A DNA stretch of 64,000 bases from a virus. The stretch is taken from positions 32,001-96,000 of IMG/VR virus record IMGVR_UViG_3300013132_000028; one strand, given 5' to 3'. Below are positions 45,846 through 60,069 of the stretch, in pieces. Made by a program: the position numbers and the translations under genes. Each line of letters starts with the position of its first letter. Position 1 is the first letter of the stretch. The notes beneath the pieces are model-generated. The model was given only the letters and a program-made list of their open reading frames with translations, had not been told where the DNA came from and ran no database searches.

Positions 45846-46187
45846 TTATACCGCATCTCCCTGCCCAAGTACAGCAGCCTTGTCTTGTATAGCAGCCTCG
45901 TCTAGGCTGGCGACTCTTTTACGGACCCTCTCGTACAGCTCCGCGGGTATGAAGCCACTGGCCATACCGGTGAGCCAGAAGTTCTTCATGTACGCTACCA
46001 GCTCTCGTATCTCCGCACTGTCCTTGAGCGTGCACTCGTTCTCGCACGCGTCTAGGCCGTGGAATGCTCGGTGGATTAGCCTACCCAGCTCGGTGTCTGC
46101 TCTTTGCTCTCTTATCAAGTCCAGGATGTGGACAGCCCAGCGGTCGACCATCTCGTCGTCGGTCACGACCATCTCGTCGTCGGTCAT
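45846..46187 (-). CDS. Hypothetical protein
   Basis: Coupled to the DUF2958 gene; stop codon lies inside the next TATAAT box. Confidence 0.6.
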
Positions 46188-46492
46188 TTGTCCAGCAGCT
46201 CGCGCAGGGTCTTTGGTTCCCAGTTGCGGTCTCGCTCGATGCTAGGCACCTCGACCGCGCCGAAGCTGGTGGTCAGGCTCTCCAGCTCCTTGAGGGAGAA
46301 GTATCCCAGCTCTCGCTCCAGTCCATCGACCAGTCCGAAGAACAGGTCCTCTCCGTCGAACTCGGACGCGTACCAAGTCCAGCTTGAGTACGGCGTGAAA
46401 AACTTGACCAGCGCCTTGGCGTCTAGGCCCTTGTCCTCTTGTGAGTACAGCTTGGGCAGCTTGGCCCGCAGCTCCTTGGTGAGCAGCATCAT
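46184..46492 (-). CDS. DUF2958-like protein
   Basis: VKFFTP..SWTWY..E.DG..FFGLV.G.E.ELGYFSL.EL..IERD. Confidence 0.8.
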
Positions 46493-46513
46493 GTGTCGTT
46501 CCTCCTTGTTAGG

Positions 46514-46600
46514 TACAGTCCACCAGGTGTCGGAGTTGTTTGCCGGGGCTCCTAGGATTTCGACCCCTCAGTTTGGCCACCGAACTCCTGGTGAACTGTA
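46514..46600 (-). ncRNA. Candidate structured leader RNA, motif copy 1
   Basis: 14-bp closing stem at the predicted TSS; UGGCCAAAC..GA / AAACAA loops. Confidence 0.55.
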
Positions 46601-46666
46601 TAGATGTATTATAGCGCAGGAGGGTGACAATGTACACCCTAGCCGGCAGGTGTTTCTAAAAAGGTT

Positions 46667-46762
46667 GGTGTGCGCTAGTCCGATGCTTCGTATAGGCAGC
46701 CCGAAGCTGCCCCATCGCTCACTGCAGGGACGAGACTAGTTCGACAACACGTCACGCACACC
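46667..46762 (-). ncRNA. Candidate multibranch ncRNA (96 nt)
   Basis: GGTGTGCG/CGCACACC, CTAGTC/GACTAG, CGATG/CATCG, GGCAGC/GCTGCC nested; followed by a T-run. Confidence 0.55.
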
Positions 46763-46803
46763 TTGTCTCGTTTGCGCAGGTTTCTAAGGCTTACCCGGGA
46801 ATA

Positions 46804-47094
46804 CTAGCCTTCGGCAGTCAAGCTGCTTGCCCCTGCGGGCTCCTGAGATGTCTTCCCGGAGTTCTTTTTGGTTTTGTTCTCGTACTCGTCTCTGGTCGGG
46901 TGCTTCTTGTGCAGCTGCACGAAGCTCTCGTCCGCACAGCCGAGCTTGCAGCTGCAGACGTAGAGACGCTCGTAGTAGCGGATGGACGGCTTGCACTTGT
47001 CGTGCTCGCCCATCATGCACCAGCCACAGAGGGTACCGGCACTCCGCACGATGTAGTCGATTGGAGTGTTGTACGGGTCTTCTATCTTTGCCAC
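46804..47094 (-). CDS. Small Cys/His-rich protein
   Basis: CGWC..G.H..C ... C.C..C. Confidence 0.6.
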   Translation of the reverse strand: MAKIEDPYNTPIDYIVRSAGTLCGWCMMGEHDKCKPSIRYYERLYVCSCKLGCADESFVQLHKKHPTRDEYENKTKKNSGKTSQEPAGASSLTAEG

Positions 47095-47258
47095 GCTGGC
47101 GCTTTGGCCATTTCTTCTACGTCTTTCTTAATCATCGCGTATGCGTTTCCGCACCGGTAGCAGTACGTCTCGGTGGGAATGCCGCCGAGAATAAAGGCGT
47201 CTACTCCCGAGAAGACCAGTTCGGTGTTGTGGCAGTTAAAGGTTTTGCACTGCTTCAC
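47082..47258 (-). CDS. Small zinc-finger protein
   Basis: GTG start; CKTFNC ... YCYRC. Confidence 0.55.
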   Translation of the reverse strand: MKQCKTFNCHNTELVFSGVDAFILGGIPTETYCYRCGNAYAMIKKDVEEMAKAPAWQR

Positions 47259-47419
47259 GATAAGACCTCGCTCTTGCGTTGCAGTTCGGCGTATGCACGC
47301 TCTAGTTGAATGTGCTCTCTCATCAGCGTTCCGTACGCGCGGATGCTGATTATGATTACAGTGCACGCTCCAAGGAGCGCAATAATGATTGCAAGAATGT
47401 CAGTTGTCAACAGCGTCAT
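47255..47419 (-). CDS. Small membrane-anchored coiled-coil protein (54 aa)
   Basis: Manual translation MTLLTTDILAIIIALLGAC...; AAGGAG RBS. Confidence 0.55.
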   Translation of the reverse strand: MTLLTTDILAIIIALLGACTVIIISIRAYGTLMREHIQLERAYAELQRKSEVLS

Positions 47420-47425
47420 CTTTTG

Positions 47426-47716
47426 TTATCTCCTTTTTGCTTTGCGAAGAAAGTAAACGAATCCACCGAGTGGACTTGCCAGGACGTACGCTACCACGAA
47501 ACCGGTGAAGCCGTCTAGTATGAAACCGACGACCAAGATTGCGATTGCAAACAGTTTCGCGAACCGTGCCCAGGTCAACATGGACCAGAACATTCCGAAA
47601 AGCATGGTGAACTCTTCGCGGTCTTCTTCGACGGTGTGGAAGGACTTGCGCTTTGAGCGCATGGCCTTCTTGCCGACGGTTAGAATCGCCGAGTCGTGCA
47701 TTGCTCCGTATAGCAT
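47426..47716 (-). CDS. Membrane protein
   Basis: Two TM segments; start MLYG after promoter 47757. Confidence 0.6.
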   Translation of the reverse strand: MLYGAMHDSAILTVGKKAMRSKRKSFHTVEEDREEFTMLFGMFWSMLTWARFAKLFAIAILVVGFILDGFTGFVVAYVLASPLGGFVYFLRKAKRR

Positions 47717-47795
47717 TTTGTCCTCGTTCCTCGAACCGCTTTGGTTCGATAGATGTATTATACCGTAATGGACCGACAAAGTACACCCTGAAAGG

Positions 47796-47829
47796 AAGAA
47801 ACCCCCGGGAGATGAAACCGGGGGTTCTT
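47796..47829. terminator. Intrinsic terminator, possibly bidirectional
   Basis: AACCCCCGG/CCGGGGGTT stem. Confidence 0.7.
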
Positions 47830-47842
47830 CGGGGAGACCTGC

Positions 47843-48172
47843 TTACTTGGCTTGGAGGACCGTGTAAGGTGTCTCGGTTAGGCAGGCAGTGTATGCCTCT
47901 GGGAATGATACTTGCAGGGTCTCGCGGTCAATGCCGCTGCGATTGCGCTTGAGAATGCGTACTCGTTCTACGCCGTTGATGGTTCCAGTCTCCGCGTCGC
48001 CTAGGAGCTCTCTGATTTGACCCTCGACCTCTAGCTTTTGAGCTTCTAGAGCCTTCAGGGCGGCTTTGGTGCTGTTGAAGCTAACGATTAGCTTCTCTGC
48101 TTCTTTACCGAGCTCGACCGAGTCGGTAGTTGTGGAGACCACTACTTTGGTCTCTATCTTGGTGCTGGCCAT
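47843..48172 (-). CDS. Coiled-coil protein (Gam/YqaJ C-terminus-like), paralog of 58166-58507
   Basis: LE..K.E....I...LGDA...TING..RV......S.IDR..L. Confidence 0.65.
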   Translation of the reverse strand: MASTKIETKVVVSTTTDSVELGKEAEKLIVSFNSTKAALKALEAQKLEVEGQIRELLGDAETGTINGVERVRILKRNRSGIDRETLQVSFPEAYTACLTETPYTVLQAK

Positions 48173-48263
48173 TCGACCACTTCCCTTCGTCTTTCGTCTT
48201 TGTCCAACCGGTTGGTTGAATAGATGTATTATACTATAGTGGAGCGACAAAGTAAAGCATCTG

Positions 48264-48336
48264 AGCCGCCTTCGGGAGTCGAACCCGAGGCCTTCGCTTT
48301 ACGAGAGCGACGCTCTACCGACTGAGCTAAGGCGGC
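48264..48336 (-). tRNA. tRNA-Thr(CGT), CCA not encoded
   Basis: GCCGCCT/AGGCGGC acceptor stem, TAGCTCAGTCGGTAGAGC D arm, loop CTCGTAA, GGTTCGACTCC T arm. Confidence 0.95.
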
Positions 48337-48340
48337 AGGC

Positions 48341-48616
48341 TCAGTCCATTTCGCGGTCATCCGCGCCGGTCTCGCCGGGGAACAGGAGCTCCCGCAACCG
48401 CTCTTCGTACCTCGAAGCGGTCCAGTCTCCTGACAGGTCTTCGTTGTTGGACAGGTCCTCCAGCGAGAACACCGCACAGTAGCCGGGCTCTTCGAAAAGA
48501 ACCGCGAGCTTGGTGTCGCTCTCGGCGGGGTCGTCGAAAATTGCGACAGTGTAAGGCATTCCGCCTCGGCCATTCCTGTGCGAAGCAGAGGCCACAATCT
48601 CGATTTTCGAGGTCAT
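48341..48616 (-). CDS. Hypothetical protein
   Basis: HRNG..G motif; probably leaderless (TAGAGT 6 nt before ATG). Confidence 0.6.
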   Translation of the reverse strand: MTSKIEIVASASHRNGRGGMPYTVAIFDDPAESDTKLAVLFEEPGYCAVFSLEDLSNNEDLSGDWTASRYEERLRELLFPGETGADDREMD

Positions 48617-48637
48617 GGCCCTACTCTACCGCACGAT

Positions 48638-48844
48638 TTAGCCTACCTGGGTAAGCTCTCCGCAGCCGGTACACCAGTACCAGTCTCCGAGTACTGAGTC
48701 CTCGTCGAACTCGTGCTGCCACTCGAACTTGTCGTGGTCGCAGTTTTCTGGGTTTTTCGACCCGTCTCCCCGCACGACTTCAGAGTCGTCCACACGAACT
48801 AACCCGTCTGGTTCCATTCTAAATCTGACTATTCCGTCTACCAC
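48638..48844 (-). CDS. Small zinc-ribbon protein
   Basis: C.H ... WCTGCGE. Confidence 0.55.
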   Translation of the reverse strand: MVDGIVRFRMEPDGLVRVDDSEVVRGDGSKNPENCDHDKFEWQHEFDEDSVLGDWYWCTGCGELTQVG

Positions 48845-49074
48845 AGGTCTTCCGCCTCCATTCGGTAGATGTGTCCTGGACCATTTCCCTCTGGGTCTTG
48901 ACTCGGTACCATCACGGTACCGTCATCTAGGGTGAACACCACCGGCACACTTCCGCCGCCTTGGTACCAACCCATGTTTTCTACTTCTTCTTCGGTCATC
49001 TCCCGCACAGACTTTATGGTACGACCAACCAGTGGTCCCCACTCGTCTTGCACGTAGTCTTTACGTACTGCCAT
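48838..49074 (-). CDS. Conserved hypothetical phage protein
   Basis: LVGRTI..VR.MT.EE...GW, PSQDPEGNGPG. Confidence 0.7.
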   Translation of the reverse strand: MAVRKDYVQDEWGPLVGRTIKSVREMTEEEVENMGWYQGGGSVPVVFTLDDGTVMVPSQDPEGNGPGHIYRMEAEDLW

Positions 49075-49356
49075 ACGAGTCCTTCCGTCGTTTCGCGAAT
49101 AGGTTTCGCGTTAGACCTATTATACCGCAAGGTGGGGTCAAAGTGTACGCCCTAGGAGAGTCCGCGCTACTCACGGGTAATGTTACCGGTGGGTAGCGAG
49201 CTTTTCTAAGTCGGGGATTTACCCAGGGGTACCGCAAAAAACTTTTCTGAGAATCTGCTCCCCTAGGGTGTACAAACGTCAGTGCTAAATGGTATAATAC
49301 AGTTATTGAATCAAACAGACGGGTTTGGTTCTCTTAACGAGATGGAGATGGATTAG

Positions 49357-49644
49357 ATGAATACTAATCTGAAGGAGCTTCAGTCCTTCTCACTTGAGAC
49401 CGCATTCAAGGCGGGCGAAGAGTGGACAAGCGCTGAGACTGATGTTCTTGCCAAAGCAAGAGCAGAAGGCATAAACTACTTTGCAATAGCAAAGATGTTA
49501 AACCGCACTGTTTACTCAGTGACGACTCAAGCAAGAGTGGTGGGAATTGCAAAACCACACTCAAATGCTCGCAAGAGCAAGAAAGTCCCAGTGCCTGCTT
49601 GTGTAAACTGCAACTTAGTGCACTCTTACAAGGAGTGCGACTAA
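49357..49644 (+). CDS. Myb/HTH-like DNA-binding protein with C-terminal zinc knuckle
   Basis: WT..E...L....G.....IA..L.RT..SV; CxxC..H....C; own promoter. Confidence 0.7.
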   Translation: MNTNLKELQSFSLETAFKAGEEWTSAETDVLAKARAEGINYFAIAKMLNRTVYSVTTQARVVGIAKPHSNARKSKKVPVPACVNCNLVHSYKECD

Positions 49645-49735
49645 ACTAAATGCCAGAAGGGCATTGACTAAATGTCAGTGCCCTAAGGTATAATAGAACT
49701 ACAACTGAATACAGAAACCAACCAACGACAAAGAG

Positions 49736-49993
49736 ATGGAGAAACAAATGAGCGCTAAATGGTGCTTGATGAACACCAGCGATGGAAGTCGCGGTGAGAG
49801 CGGCAAGAAGAAGGTCTACGAGGTAATCCTCGAAGGCAAAAAGGTTCGCATGATTTGGGGCATGGCAGAGAAAGATTCTCGCCAGTCAAAGACCATGGAG
49901 TTTGCTACTGAACTCGCTGCTAAGTGGTTTGCTCAAGACAAGGTTCGTGAAAAGATTCAAGAACGCGGATACGAGTTGGTCTACTCAGTCTAA
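49736..49993 (+). CDS. WGR-domain-like protein
   Basis: K.YEV......V...WG......Q.....F....A.......EK....GY. Confidence 0.72.
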   Translation: MEKQMSAKWCLMNTSDGSRGESGKKKVYEVILEGKKVRMIWGMAEKDSRQSKTMEFATELAAKWFAQDKVREKIQERGYELVYSV

Positions 49994-50005
49994 AACAAAA
50001 AACAC

Positions 50006-50038
50006 AAACCCTCTGCTGGAAGGCGGAGGGTTTTTTTT
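50006..50038 (+). terminator. Intrinsic terminator
   Basis: AAACCCTCTGC/GCGGAGGGTTT followed by T8. Confidence 0.85.
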
Positions 50039-50064
50039 ACGCTCGCGCGCTTTTGGCGGCAAAA

Positions 50065-50116
50065 GCATTTCGCGATTATCCGCGCAAACTCTTTGGCATT
50101 TCGCGATTATCCGCGC
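50065..50116. repeat. Two identical 21-bp direct repeats, 31-bp period
   Basis: GCATTTCGCGATTATCCGCGC at 50065 and 50096. Confidence 0.9.
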
Positions 50117-50269
50117 GGACTACATGTTTATTTACAGAATGAGCAGTAGTTATTAACCCGTATGTCTGAAACAGGGATGCTAAATAGTCTAGCGCAATGG
50201 AAGCATCTGACCGTTGCTAATCTATTTCTAGACCTAACAAGAGTTTTTAATTTGGTTAAATTCACAGCG

Positions 50270-50512
50270 CTAGTTCTTGACTTCAGCGCGGTAGTACTGG
50301 ATTCCTTCTGCTTCCTGCGTCAGGTCTTTGACCCAAGGCAGACGGTGTCTCGGCGCGTCAAGCATCGAGCTGGCGAACTCCACGGCCGCACGCTTCGCGG
50401 CGCCGAGAGTCGAGCAGGCGGCACGGCGGTACGTGTCTGTGTCTGCGTCCTTCACTTCTACCAGCCACGCCGACTGTGGCGCCTTGTTTTTCAGCATTGT
50501 TGCGACTATCAT
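50270..50512 (-). CDS. Hypothetical protein
   Basis: ATGA-coupled to the upstream gene. Confidence 0.55.
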   Translation of the reverse strand: MIVATMLKNKAPQSAWLVEVKDADTDTYRRAACSTLGAAKRAAVEFASSMLDAPRHRLPWVKDLTQEAEGIQYYRAEVKN

Positions 50513-51162
50513 TTGCGTCCTTTCACTCTGTTTTTCTTCAAGACTTTTCTGAGCGCCCGGCTCTTTCCGGTTGTCTTCTTGTAGCCGTACCGTACCATAC
50601 GATGTGACACGGCCGCGTTAGTGACTCCCAGCAACCTTGCCAGCGTGGCAAGCTTCACCTTCTCTACCCGCACTGAGTAGTTCAGCAGGCGCACGAACTC
50701 GTCCGCCTCCGCACGGTTTTTTGGGCTGTGCCCGCGTACGGCCGCGGCGTTCGGGAGCAGCTCCAGCAGTCGCCGTTTCGTTTGCTCGCTGGGCTGTGGC
50801 GTTTTTCTCTCGTACCTGCCGGCAGACCTCTCCGCGTAGACCGGCGGAAGTGGCAGCGGGTAGTGTGTAAGCACGTAGTCGAGCCAGGCGTCTTTCGGCT
50901 TGGTTAGAGTTATCTGCCGCACTCTTTCGCGGGTCAAGTCCATCGCGCCGGCGACCGCGCTGAGTGTCCAGCCCAGTTTTACGAGCTTCCAGGCGTATGC
51001 GCTCCGCATGTGGTTGCCGCCGAGGTACATGTGCGACCCGGGCCGGAGCGAGTTCTTTAATTCTTTTTTGAACACCGCGTGGACCTCAGGCGGCAGGGCC
51101 TGGTGTGCCTTCTTGATTTGTCCCCACTTGCCGTACGGGACTGTGTCTACCACTTCTTGCAT
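50509..51162 (-). CDS. Double HTH (sigma4-like) DNA-binding protein
   Basis: GWTLSAVAGAMDLTRERVRQI; LATLARLLGVT..AV..R..RYGY. Confidence 0.72.
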   Translation of the reverse strand: MQEVVDTVPYGKWGQIKKAHQALPPEVHAVFKKELKNSLRPGSHMYLGGNHMRSAYAWKLVKLGWTLSAVAGAMDLTRERVRQITLTKPKDAWLDYVLTHYPLPLPPVYAERSAGRYERKTPQPSEQTKRRLLELLPNAAAVRGHSPKNRAEADEFVRLLNYSVRVEKVKLATLARLLGVTNAAVSHRMVRYGYKKTTGKSRALRKVLKKNRVKGRK

Positions 51163-51270
51163 GTAAGCCTTTCGTTTTGCCGGTTGGTAATCGTATGGAC
51201 AGTTTTAAGCCGTATCCAGGGCTCTCCCAGCGCTACTAGCCCGAGATGGGATAGGGCGAGCGCTAGAAAC

Positions 51271-51735
51271 CTATTTATTCTGAAACAGAATGGGAAACTG
51301 CCGTTCGAACAAGTCCTCCTCGGAGAGGCAGCCGCCTTCTTCGTGCGCTTTTTGCGTGAACTCTTCGCCGGTGATTGCCCTGTACACTACCTTTGCCTGC
51401 TCGAAGCCGGCTTCGCCGCCGTCGGAACTCAGCAGGATTGCATCCGCGAAGTGTCGCTTTGCCAGCAGGAGTGCCGTCGTGACGACTACGTCGTAGTCGT
51501 ACTGATTTGTTTTGCAGAAGTCAAAGCCAGAGTCCTTGGGTTGGATTACCAGCGACTCGCACGGACCGGTTATGACGACCTCGTGTTGATTCGCGAGTAT
51601 CCCGCACTTGATGTTGACGCCAGCGGACTTGGTCCGCGACACTTCTACCTTCAACTTTTTTATGTCCGTCACGAACTTGCTGAAACTCTGTGGGTCCAGC
51701 GGTTTCTTGACGTTCCAGTAGTGGGTGTATCCCAT
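51271..51735 (-). CDS. Conserved hypothetical phage protein
   Basis: MGYTHYW ... FDFCKT....YD..V ... SSDG. Confidence 0.72.
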   Translation of the reverse strand: MGYTHYWNVKKPLDPQSFSKFVTDIKKLKVEVSRTKSAGVNIKCGILANQHEVVITGPCESLVIQPKDSGFDFCKTNQYDYDVVVTTALLLAKRHFADAILLSSDGGEAGFEQAKVVYRAITGEEFTQKAHEEGGCLSEEDLFERQFPILFQNK

Positions 51736-51822
51736 CTTTGTCCTTTCGTCTTTTTGCGGACTGTCCGCATAAACTATTATACCGCAAGGGGGTGACGTTT
51801 GTCAACCCCCTGCAGTTTAATG

Positions 51823-52077
51823 TTATAGATACTGGATGTGTTCTCCAGTGGTTGGGTCGAACGTCAGTTCGACCACGAAGTCGAGGACCTCGACTGGGAC
51901 TTCGTCCCGGTCTATCTCCTCTTCGTCTCCCTCTAACCAGAAGTTGACGTTTGTGTCTTCGACTCCCTCGTCGTCAGACAGTAGTTGAATCACGTAGGTT
52001 TTACCCTCGAACTCAACCGTGAAGTTTTGGTACCAACGACAAGGTGTCGGTGTTTCCATCTTCTTTAGGTTTACCAT
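51823..52077 (-). CDS. Small acidic protein
   Basis: Own promoter and RBS; D/E-rich. Confidence 0.6.
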   Translation of the reverse strand: MVNLKKMETPTPCRWYQNFTVEFEGKTYVIQLLSDDEGVEDTNVNFWLEGDEEEIDRDEVPVEVLDFVVELTFDPTTGEHIQYL

Positions 52078-52156
52078 GGTTCTCCCATCTCCAGTCTACT
52101 TCTTGTTCGACTGAATAAATGTATTATACCGTGCAGGACTGACGTTTTGTACACCC

Positions 52157-52396
52157 TCAGTTGGCGTGTTGTCTTGCGTCCTCGAGCATCATCACCATCA
52201 GTTTCTTGAGTGGTTTTGGGATTTCCTCGTACGGGATTTCGAGTACGGAGTCTTCGTCTCCGAACGTCATCATGTAGCAGATTTGGTCGACTATGTCCTC
52301 GCTGGAGTATTCCAGTTTTACCGGCACTAGGTCTCTGCCCGCGAGCAGCAGCGCCTTTGCCGCTTGGGAGATTTGCGTTGCCTCGTTCTTTCTCAT
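52157..52396 (-). CDS. Hypothetical protein
   Basis: GGAG RBS. Confidence 0.55.
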   Translation of the reverse strand: MRKNEATQISQAAKALLLAGRDLVPVKLEYSSEDIVDQICYMMTFGDEDSVLEIPYEEIPKPLKKLMVMMLEDARQHAN

Positions 52397-52399
52397 CGC

Positions 52400-52546
52400 C
52401 TACTCCTCCTCGTTCAGTACGTACAGCAGGGTTCCCATGTCGAACCCGAGACCAGTCCGCACTATGATTTCTTCGCCGTCTAACACCACGGTTGCACCGG
52501 GCATGTTCTCGCTCACGAAGTCCTTCAGGTCTTGCAGTGTGTCCAT
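52400..52546 (-). CDS. Small acidic protein (48 aa, MDTLQDLKDFV...)
   Basis: Manual translation; AAAAGGA RBS after a structured leader. Confidence 0.55.
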   Translation of the reverse strand: MDTLQDLKDFVSENMPGATVVLDGEEIIVRTGLGFDMGTLLYVLNEEE

Positions 52547-52579
52547 CTCTTGCCGTCCTTTTCGTCGTTGGGTTTAAGG

Positions 52580-52660
52580 TTCAACACGGAGCGGCGTATT
52601 GTTTCGGACCCTGCGCAGTAGCAGTCTTTCGTTTGACCAGCGCCTGTCCTCCGTGTTGAA
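52580..52660 (-). ncRNA. Candidate structured leader RNA, motif copy 2
   Basis: Perfect 12-bp TTCAACACGGAG/CTCCGTGTTGAA closing stem at the TSS; UGGUCAAAC..GA / AAACAA loops. Confidence 0.55.
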
Positions 52661-52696
52661 TAACTGTATTATACCGTGTTGCACCGACAAAGTAAA

Positions 52697-52951
52697 CTAG
52701 ACAGACTTGTCGCCCTCTAGTAGAGTGATGAAGTCGGAGTGCATCTCTTCTATCGGAGTGCCGAACTCCCAGATTGTCTTCTCAAACTTGTCCGGTGCCT
52801 CGTAGATGACGCCGTCGCGGATGTCCAGCTCACGGTCTGTTGCCACGTCTGCTGGAATGTCGGATGCCCGCATTACGTAGATGACACTGTCGGGATTGAA
52901 CTCCCACCAGTCGCCGTTCTCGTTTGCCAGGTACAGAGGTTTGGTCGCCAT
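52697..52951 (-). CDS. Hypothetical protein
   Basis: Start MATKPL coupled to the upstream stop. Confidence 0.55.
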   Translation of the reverse strand: MATKPLYLANENGDWWEFNPDSVIYVMRASDIPADVATDRELDIRDGVIYEAPDKFEKTIWEFGTPIEEMHSDFITLLEGDKSV

Positions 52952-59058: not shown

Positions 59059-59081
59059 TGCTTGTCCTTTCGTCGTTGTGT

Positions 59082-59161
59082 GTAGTCGGAACGAGATTCT
59101 TAGTTTTCCACCGCGGTGGTCTTCATCTCTATTCGGCGCCCTAAGGGTTTCCGCCGACTAC
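59082..59161 (-). ncRNA. Candidate switchable leader RNA
   Basis: GTAGTCGG/CCGACTAC closing stem competes with TCGGCG/CGCCGA; inner GAGAT/ATCTC and CCAC/GTGG. Confidence 0.45.
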
Positions 59162-59192
59162 TGAACTATTATACCACAGGGCAGTGACGTTT

Positions 59193-59396
59193 CTATAACT
59201 CCTCAAGCACTGAGACGCCGAAGTCAAGTTGAATTCCGCGGTTGCGCTCTTCTGCGTCTGGCAGGTCTGAGATGTTCATCTCTTCGTCTTGGCACTTCTC
59301 AAGAAGTTCTTCAGCGTGAGCAAAGTTCTCAGCGGTGAACCACACCTGGTTCATTGAGACTTCGTCAAACCTAAATGAGTACCTTGGCACAATCAC
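59193..59396 (-). CDS. Small acidic protein
   Basis: Own promoter, AGGAG RBS. Confidence 0.55.
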   Translation of the reverse strand: MIVPRYSFRFDEVSMNQVWFTAENFAHAEELLEKCQDEEMNISDLPDAEERNRGIQLDFGVSVLEEL

Positions 59397-59440
59397 TCCT
59401 TTCTAGTTGAGTAATTGTATTATACCATAGGGGAGCGACG

Positions 59441-59952: not shown

Positions 59953-59995
59953 TTCTTTCCTTTCGTCGTTTTGTCCTTGGCTCTATTATACCGTG

Positions 59996-60069
59996 TCGGG
60001 GTGACGAGATTTGAACTCGCGACCTCCTGGTCCCGAACCAGGCGCGCTACCAAGCTGCGCCACACCCCG
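59996..60069 (-). tRNA. tRNA-Pro(CGG), CCA not encoded
   Basis: CGGGGTG/CACCCCG acceptor stem, GGCGCAGCTTGGTAGCGC D arm, loop TTCGGGA, GTTCAAATC T loop. Confidence 0.95.

Follow-up and report, generated by a model that had tools for sequence, protein, structure and literature searches.

The stretch of DNA analyzed here (the window) comprises 64,000 nucleotides, bases 32001–96000 of the 117,837-bp IMG/VR virus record IMGVR_UViG_3300013132_000028. Its minus strand carries two copies of a small RNA element, each lying between a predicted early promoter and a small gene, and a regular-expression search of the whole 117,837-bp record found these two and no others. The analysis shows, at the level of sequence and predicted fold, that both belong to a genuine RNA family not catalogued before, found in uncultured lake phages with an actinobacteriophage-like portal protein. 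In each copy, the first and last bases pair to form a terminal helix (P1); further inward lie a second helix (P2), a large internal loop with two conserved strands, and a third helix (P3) that closes an apical loop. The features are given below in window coordinates. R2 denotes a covariance model built from eight sequences, namely copy 2 and seven relatives, with copy 1 left out.

46184–46492, minus strand: first gene after copy 1, encoding a 102-amino-acid DUF2958 protein (PF11171, 54.6 bits against a cut-off of 21)
46514–46600, minus strand: copy 1 of the RNA element, 87 nt (R2, 32.2 bits, E 2e-5)
46534–46544, minus strand: copy 1 internal loop, conserved 3′ strand GGCAAACAACU (sequence, R2, family alignment)
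46550–46557, minus strand: copy 1 palindrome in the P3 loop, 8 nt, UCCUAGGA, abutting the 3′ strand of P3 (self-duplex −11.8 kcal/mol)
46568–46579, minus strand: copy 1 internal loop, conserved 5′ strand UGGCCAAACUGA (sequence, R2, family alignment)
46587–46600, minus strand: copy 1 P1, 5′ strand, pairing with 46514–46527 (sequence, folding, R2)
46608–46640, minus strand: predicted promoter of copy 1, TGTACA, a spacer with a GTC box, and TATAAT at 46608–46613 (sequence prediction)
52400–52546, minus strand: first open reading frame (ORF) after copy 2, 48 amino acids, without family assignment (ORF cluster 9)
52580–52660, minus strand: copy 2 of the RNA element, 81 nt, AAC type (R2, 77.6 bits, as a seed of that model)
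52597–52606, minus strand: copy 2 internal loop, conserved 3′ strand CGAAACAAUA (sequence, family alignment)
52611–52618, minus strand: copy 2 palindrome in the P3 loop, 8 nt, CUGCGCAG (self-duplex −13.5 kcal/mol)
52627–52640, minus strand: copy 2 internal loop, conserved 5′ strand CUGGUCAAACGAAA (sequence, family alignment)
52649–52660, minus strand: copy 2 P1, 5′ strand, pairing with 52580–52591 (sequence, folding, R2)
52668–52700, minus strand: predicted promoter of copy 2, TTTACT, a spacer with a GTC box, and TATAAT at 52668–52673 (sequence prediction)

Copy 1 has a P1 of 14 bp including one G-U, a P2 of UCGG/CCGA and a P3 of GGGG(U)/(G)CCCC, with UGGCCAAACUGA and GGCAAACAACU as the 5′ and 3′ strands of its internal loop. 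The corresponding parts of copy 2 are a 12-bp P1, GGCG/CGCC for P2, the family-consistent GACU/GGUC for P3, and the loop strands CUGGUCAAACGAAA and CCGAAACAAUA. Shared by both are UGGYCAAAC on the 5′ and AAACAA on the 3′ loop strand. The minimum free energy of copy 1 is −40.5 kcal/mol (z −3.66), which none of 200 shuffled sequences equaled; for copy 2 the value is −29.4 kcal/mol (z −2.23), equaled by 3 of 200. Each copy starts 6–8 nt past the TATAAT of a predicted GTC-N12-TATAAT promoter. A Shine-Dalgarno (SD) sequence, AAGGAGG, sits between copy 1 and the ATG of the DUF2958 gene, and an ORF related to the 48-amino-acid one behind copy 2 also follows the element in another phage (L394).

These data largely bear out a preliminary description of this DNA, which had drawn a two-copy structured motif at 46514–46600 and 52580–52660. 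The stems and loops are present by sequence and folding, both copies begin at the predicted transcription start of a GTC promoter, and they precede unrelated genes (DUF2958 and the 48-amino-acid ORF). Two details are to be revised. First, P3 of copy 2 had been drawn as CUGC/GCAG, a pairing that consumes half of the 8-nt loop palindrome CUGCGCAG; the P3 found throughout the family is GACU/GGUC. Second, the conserved loops hold as a shared core, not as the exact UGGYCAAAC..GA that had been given: the family as a whole keeps UGGNCA-(AAC or CCU)-GAA in its 5′ loop strand, opposite G-AAACAA in the 3′ one.

The same description had cautioned that two copies are thin evidence, and rightly. A covariance model of copy 1 and a near-identical variant (R1) missed copy 2 under default filters; with filters off, it gave copy 2 only 14.2 bits (E 0.075 in 18 kb), at rank 4 and behind a plain hairpin. 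The joint alignment produced by R1 was unusable, and MAFFT alignments of the two copies alone were inconsistent with the structure, so that no joint model could be seeded. The first relatives were three near-identical contigs without informative changes. Upstream of distant DUF2958 genes (nine loci), the element was present only at three near-identical loci, and the pattern TGGYCAAAC-N10-40-AAACAA matched seven of 50 portal-related records, three of them near-identical and genuine and the rest in coding sequence.

Divergent members were obtained by scanning IMG/VR with IUPAC patterns for both loop strands and filtering the matches by the energy of the flanking helices. This yielded at least seven further distinct sequences (L143 = L258, L299, L272, L225, L349, L339 and L340), in which the sequences of P1, P2 and P3 differ while pairing and loop strands are kept; each lies right behind a −10 box, and each before a different gene. 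One match, L271, passed the flank-duplex filter and was rejected as coding-like and lacking a promoter. The broad patterns were saturated by a widespread phage coding sequence (approximately IQRGQTDPNETLGAQIIKSNNAAGR) that contains TGGTCAAAC..GA...AAACAA and is unrelated to the RNA (L140–L286 and others).

Apart from copy 2, the only site in the 64-kb window that R2 reported up to E 10 was copy 1, with every modeled pair standard. This match is an independent test that both copies belong together. R2 was further run on 50 phage records (8 with R2 seeds, 36 portal-related and 6 from the DUF2958 search), and 18 of them matched. The portal-related set contributed 10 of its 36 records, comprising 2 near-identical relatives and 8 divergent members of a second, CCU type, which score 28.5–53.7 bits, start 7–9 nt past a −10 box and carry the 5′ loop UGGNCACCUGAAC in place of UGGUCAAACGAAA; none of the six DUF2958-derived records matched. 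A 20-base CCU-type pattern then occurred in 71 IMG/VR stretches, against an estimated ~2 expected by chance. R2 supports 62 of these and four more are genuine by eye (one shared sequence, below threshold), the other five being coding-sequence false positives from two sequence families. Chance resemblance is effectively excluded. Pattern and covariance-model searches, of the kind recommended for checking the motif, have recovered homologs with covariation, bringing the family to 48 distinct sequences. The CCU type accounts for at least 66 IMG/VR contigs and the AAC type for at least nine more (seven distinct sequences), to which this phage and three near-identical relatives are to be added. Copy 1 is its most divergent member, and the copy-1 type, searched by pattern and covariance model, is restricted to this phage and three near-identical records (L466, L475 and L487).

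The novelty that had been supposed stands against Rfam 15 (4227 models). At gathering thresholds, only two tRNAs were found in the whole window, and at E values up to 10 there were four matches in positions 46300–52900, none at either element. A description of the motif was likewise not found in the literature, as judged from titles and abstracts. The RNA family is new; the broad category of phage-encoded structured RNAs is already known.

The nearest named relatives by portal are Actinomycetia phage DSL-LC01 (68% identity), a metagenome-assembled genome (PMC10611076), and cultured Microbacterium, Arthrobacter and Gordonia phages (42–57%). None of the named relatives searched with R2 gave a significant match: DSL-LC01, Microbacterium phages Pumpernickel and Cece, Arthrobacter phage Atuin (one match, E 0.54) and Gordonia phage Sixama. 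In DSL-LC01, a relaxed pattern matched once, unconvincingly. Searching 50,697 phage records with one member by blastn returned only short chance matches in coding regions, and with 7 kb of the window by megablast, nothing. The CCU-type pattern matched 15 times in 185,579 bacterial and archaeal genomes, about the chance estimate, and R2 supported none of these. The sequencing runs that contain at least half of the sampled words of this DNA (X1–X3) are labeled lake water metagenome, which is a record label only, and the complete records in the set are 131–161 kb long. As far as this evidence goes, the element appears limited to one clade of large, uncultured lake phages.

The consensus structure was derived from a family alignment (A10) of 71 instances and 48 distinct sequences. 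The predicted RNA is a rod of 72–87 nt. P1 spans 8–14 bp and is followed by a short purine-rich bulge and the 4-bp P2. Next comes the large asymmetric internal loop (13/10 nt), in which the 5′ strand reads UGGNCA-NNN-GAA-N and the 3′ strand N-G-AAACAA-U-N, with near-invariant bases, and then P3, of 4–5 bp, closing an apical loop of 11–13 nt. Over the 48 distinct rows, 98.1% of P1 cells are paired and double changes occur at 10 of 10 pairs; for P3, including an extra pair 33–55, the values are 96.7% and 4 of 5 pairs. The covariation score of 0.660 compares with 0.206 for shuffles, none of 500 of which reached it, and with at most 0.134 when the 3′ partners were slid by 1–3 columns. P2 is only 40% paired in a fixed register, because the distance from P2 to UGG is one base longer in one group of the family than in the other; with the register free to shift by 0 or 1 nt, each of the 48 sequences forms the 4 bp of P2, and eight sequence types are found among them. 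RNAalifold, given the same alignment, predicts P1 and P3 unaided. The covarying stems and conserved loops of the preliminary description are therefore borne out: P1, P2 and P3 covary and the internal-loop core is kept. Several motif likenesses noticed by eye were dropped, namely a K-turn, a GNRA-tetraloop receptor and a CRISPR-repeat mimic. The same applies to an anti-SD mimic, in which UGGUCACCU resembles the 3′ end of 16S rRNA (AAC-type members lack it), and to a pseudoknot between CCU and the P3 loop, for which no consistent complement exists across types.

Could such inverted repeats be a property of the DNA? The element moves with its promoter between unrelated early genes and contains a palindrome, and T4-type phages have repeated promoter/stem-loop cassettes (PeSLs), which, going by the titles of the papers, are composite promoter-terminator DNA motifs (PMC2839356, PMC4122927). 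It might accordingly be a mobile promoter cassette, its repeats and palindrome forming a recombination site or a protein operator, with the RNA irrelevant. We regard this as very improbable. Of the 714 stem cells, 49 are G-U pairs, which would be A-C mismatches if read on the opposite strand, and R2 matches one strand only, always the one downstream of the promoter; both facts indicate that what is constrained is this strand's RNA and not duplex DNA. Furthermore, the palindrome varies among phages whereas the single-stranded loop bases are fixed, and it lies off-center between the arms of P3.

The apical loop has a second unusual property. A perfect palindrome of at least 6 nt is present in 45 of the 48 loops, and one of 8 nt in 36, compared with 13% and 2.5% of loop shuffles. 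It always occupies the 3′ part of the loop, abutting the 3′ strand of P3. Nine different palindromes occur: CUUGCAAG, CUCUAGAG, CCUAGG, CCUGCAGG, CUGCGCAG, CGCAUGCG, CUCCGGAG, CGCUAGCG and UCCUAGGA. Two of the three exceptions (CUCUAGGG) become self-complementary, by eye, once G-U is allowed. Self-duplex energies range from −8.0 to −14.3 kcal/mol. In the two genomes with two copies, this phage and G067, the cross-duplex between a genome's own two palindromes is worth only −0.5 and −3.2 kcal/mol (−0.5 in this phage). Dimers are predicted to be more stable than two monomers by 10.4 kcal/mol in the median, compared with 6.9 kcal/mol when the loops are shuffled. Since the central four bases of the palindrome cannot pair within one hairpin, and since self-complementarity is kept through sequence change, the data point to pairing between two molecules.

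In this respect the tip of the element is closest to the dimerization initiation site (DIS) of retroviruses. The kissing-loop hairpin of the HIV-1 DIS presents an apical palindrome of at least 6 nt flanked by purines, which is self-complementary, varies by lineage, and exists in variants that do not cross-pair. Here, too, a palindrome lies in a purine-flanked position in the apical loop, is self-complementary over at least 6 nt through sequence change, differs by lineage, and comes in variants that do not cross-pair, the dimer being in our case a prediction. Unlike the DIS, the element belongs to a bacterial DNA phage. Its 6–8-nt palindrome takes up part of an 11–13-nt loop, directly next to the 3′ strand of the stem, and its hairpin is the tip of an 80-nt rod that has another conserved loop. 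A role in genome packaging, moreover, is inconceivable for a double-stranded DNA phage.

The genomic context was examined in 55 distinct cases. A TAnnnT box ends 3–11 nt upstream of the modeled P1 in 53 of them (background 10%), so that the predicted −10 box places the element at the predicted transcript start. Within 9 nt past P1, CU(A/U)A occurs in 40 of the 55 (background 5%). A first downstream ORF follows 69 of the 71 aligned instances, and these 69 ORFs fall into 27 unrelated clusters. The encoded proteins mostly have 36–146 amino acids (one has 305), and a Pfam scan of ten of them, that of copy 1 and nine cluster representatives, gave only DUF2958 above the cut-off. In 25 records ascertained by pattern, one copy was found in 23, two in G067 and none in one; this phage has two.

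A conserved loop in a 5′ untranslated region, closed by covarying stems, is what a riboswitch would look like, the internal loop binding a small molecule and controlling the next gene. We consider this highly unlikely given the downstream genes, 27 unrelated clusters of small proteins without known function, and given that nine of the 55 contexts have no directly attached ORF. Nor could an expression platform be made out (alternative pairings were not searched systematically): the entire element is enclosed by P1, 8–14 bp long, and the SD falls beyond it. The 15 matches of the CCU-type pattern in bacterial and archaeal genomes, none of them supported by the covariance model, argue in the same direction.

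Attachment to unrelated genes would suit a self-cleaving ribozyme that cuts itself free of the mRNA, perhaps as a dimer. A conserved purine-rich internal loop between covarying helices is typical of small ribozymes, and the conserved CUAA after P1, seen as CU(A/U)A in the above 40 contexts, could be the cleavage site. Hammerhead, hairpin, twister, twister-sister, pistol, hatchet and hepatitis delta virus-like ribozymes are all represented in Rfam, and no Rfam model of these or any other known ribozyme family matched at either element up to E 10. By eye, CUGA..GAAAC partly resembles the hammerhead core, but the third helix and G8/A9 are missing. The conserved loop is flanked by only two helices, and those stand-alone units that end in a terminator (see below) would need no cleavage. 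A new ribozyme class seems improbable to us; if the element did prove to be a ribozyme, it would be a new class.

The nine contexts without an attached ORF deserve attention. In L405, a canonical terminator (15-bp stem, U run) lies 15 nt after the element; in L392 and L419, a strong hairpin follows and then a new promoter; and in L397, L420, L388, L410, L380 and L396, a new promoter comes after the element. All nine assignments were made by eye. One identical RNA sequence serves as leader before an SD and ORF in L393 and stands before the terminator in L405. Neither these stand-alone versions nor the palindromic loop featured in the preliminary description.

The remaining 46 contexts have an SD and an ORF 18–40 nt downstream, and bring up the most serious competitor, a purely cis-acting 5′ leader. 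Such a leader would protect the 5′ end of early mRNA from host RNases that depend on the 5′ end, tune translation, or, as the put RNAs do, alter the RNA polymerase that has just transcribed it and let that polymerase pass terminators. That the element sits at the predicted +1 (53 of the 55 contexts) fits well, as does the closeness of SD and ORF, and this phage itself supplies a parallel. Between 46608 and 59985, mostly on the minus strand, the window has ~15 predicted early promoters with GTC exactly 12 nt before TATAAT, and at nearly all of them a short 5′ hairpin starts ~7 nt past the −10 box, and a conserved leader, ACGACGAAAGGACAA, comes between that hairpin and the start codon; ~12 promoters other than those of the two copies carry a simple 5′ hairpin with the ACGACGAAAGGACAA leader. 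The two copies, each behind an early promoter, also recall putL and putR. Selection for a 5′-end stem thus appears to be generic in this phage, and alone is no proof of a specific motif. A stabilizer, however, needs only a stem, not a near-invariant 13/10-nt loop or a palindromic apical loop. In nine contexts, a terminator or a second promoter would separate the element from the gene, the L405 transcript would stop right behind the element, and only 1–2 of the ~15 early promoters here carry it at all. On balance, we think a purely cis-acting role rather unlikely, though it has to be taken seriously.

The put RNAs of HK022 (putL and putR) consist of two adjacent stem-loops, ~70 nt in total, do not start at +1, and act on the host RNA polymerase without a phage protein. 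The element resembles them in being encoded in cis just past early promoters, in two copies in this phage, with variable stems and kept loop features. Unlike the put RNAs, which have no palindrome, it is one rod with an internal loop and a palindromic loop, most genomes here have one copy, and some copies are directly followed by a terminator or a second promoter. The put architecture was not found in the element, nor any sequence or Rfam relationship to put. With ompA-type 5′ stabilizers and the T4-type PeSLs it has in common a hairpin within a few bases of the 5′ end (the predicted one here) and the arrangement of promoter-hairpin modules before small variable early genes, a layout repeated at the ~12 other promoters in the window; unlike the element, those hairpins have neither a conserved internal loop nor a palindromic apical loop.

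Having weighed these possibilities, we tentatively favor another one, in which the element would act autonomously, as an early small RNA or leader module of the phage, forming homodimers and presenting a conserved protein-binding loop. The RNA would be made by the host RNA polymerase at the onset of infection, from a host-type early promoter. It would not regulate one particular gene but form a module of its own, mostly fused as 5′ leader to the small early gene that follows, and in some phages its own transcription unit with a terminator or second promoter after it. Two molecules would pair via the palindromic loop, as a kissing complex or an extended duplex, and in two-copy genomes each copy would use its own, non-cross-pairing palindrome. 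The dimer would present two conserved internal loops, to which a host or phage protein most likely binds, and the RNA might act as a decoy, a scaffold or an RNA-polymerase-directed RNA early in infection. The long 5′-terminal P1 may in addition shield the 5′ end of the attached mRNA. Of the three functions offered by the preliminary description (riboswitch, ribozyme, and protein-binding or decoy RNA), we infer that the last fits best, whereas a pathway riboswitch is argued against by the 27 ORF clusters and by the nine contexts without an attached ORF.

A more specific version is speculative and in our view unlikely as it stands, yet has some appeal. It envisages a phage host-takeover RNA of ~80 nt, made in the first seconds of infection, whose dimer, joined by a lineage-specific palindromic loop into a rod of ~160 nt with two conserved bubbles, would capture a host protein in actinobacteria; RNA polymerase holoenzyme would be the most interesting candidate, in a manner like that of 6S RNA. 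To our knowledge, actinobacteria lack Hfq, ProQ and CsrA. As a whole, the element is most like the closed rod RNAs, among them 6S RNA, a rod of ~150–300 nt with a closing stem and a central bubble that is abundant and sequesters a protein, as does Ms1 of mycobacteria. The likeness to 6S RNA and Ms1 lies in the 5′ and 3′ ends forming a closing stem and in a conserved central bubble (13/10 nt here) between helices. The difference is one of size: the monomer has 72–87 nt, and only the dimer (~160 nt) would reach that of 6S RNA. The Rfam search up to E 10, in which neither site matched any family, covered 6S models if these are in Rfam. The other rod to be considered is the packaging RNA (pRNA) of phi29, which is 120–174 nt long, forms rings through two different complementary loops, and is restricted to small phi29-like podoviruses. 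It, too, is a small phage RNA with an early promoter, paired ends and covarying loop-loop multimerization (predicted here); the element differs in having one palindrome instead of two complementary loops, and gave no Rfam match. Hence, the tip recalls the retroviral DIS hairpin, the whole the closed rods, and the placement the put RNAs and 5′ stabilizer hairpins, and the element is a member of none of these.

Several points weigh against the autonomous dimerizing module we favor. The 46 contexts with a closely following SD and ORF fit a purely cis-acting role equally well, and the promoters and terminators of the stand-alone units were judged by eye from sequence. Nearly every early promoter here has a 5′ hairpin, so part of the selection on P1 may be generic. 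The alignment A10 was fitted to the model, which makes the pair counts lean toward the modeled structure. In the 62 CCU-type rows, the pattern used to retrieve them dictated part of the near-invariance of the loop bases; unbiased support comes solely from the eight divergent records found by the covariance model alone, which show the same loop core. The palindrome is also a DNA-level feature. The expression of the RNA, its 5′ and 3′ ends, its dimerization and its partner are all sequence-based predictions, and no candidate partner gene was found: the genome contains no TROVE and no RNase III domain, on which account a Y-RNA idea and a phage RNase III were dropped. Finally, none of the cultured phages examined yielded the element.

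Should the decoy or scaffold function hold, it would point to a novel way in which phages of freshwater actinobacteria, abundant and poorly studied hosts, take over the cell early in infection. We know of few natural RNAs that work as homodimers, and of few phage small RNAs that combine strong covariation with the lack of a known family. The element would occupy the first bases of early transcripts, as a module that moves between genes and whose palindrome diversifies while self-complementarity is kept. At 80 nt it is a well-defined object, amenable to study in vitro without the uncultured host.

The early region of the window holds further features of interest. The gene behind the promoter at 59419 (~59330–59419, minus strand) begins VPRYSFRFDEVSMNQVWFTAEN and has a plain leader in this phage, while homologs of it (MPKYSFRFNEVAMNQVWFTADN; L354, L355 and L357) carry the RNA element upstream in other phages; this suggests that the element has moved between early genes. 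The GTC-type promoter also occurs in three of the 50 related records (G001, G003 and G038), and a spacer box of the GTCAGGGAAGT type is used by relatives.

A third long structured leader lies at ~59060–59160 on the minus strand, behind a promoter whose −10 box ends at 59168. Its 8-bp closing stem, GUAGUCGG/CCGACUAC, encloses the hairpins CGGCG..CGCCG and CCACC-GC-GGUGG together with A-rich internal loops, and ACGACGAAAGGACAA follows. It has no R2 match and may be a different RNA. A hairpin similar to that of P3 in copy 1, CGGGAAGACAUCUCAGGAGCCCG, lies at 46836–46858 (minus strand), ~240 nt upstream of copy 1 and within listed ORFs; it is a weak R1 match (9 bits, E 1.8–6.4) and probably arose by chance. 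The two tRNA genes reported by Rfam also fall in the early region, at 48264–48336 and 59996–60069 on the minus strand (71.9 and 66.1 bits). One is located just upstream of a promoter whose −10 box ends at 48228 (minus strand), and the other ends beside the promoter at 59985.

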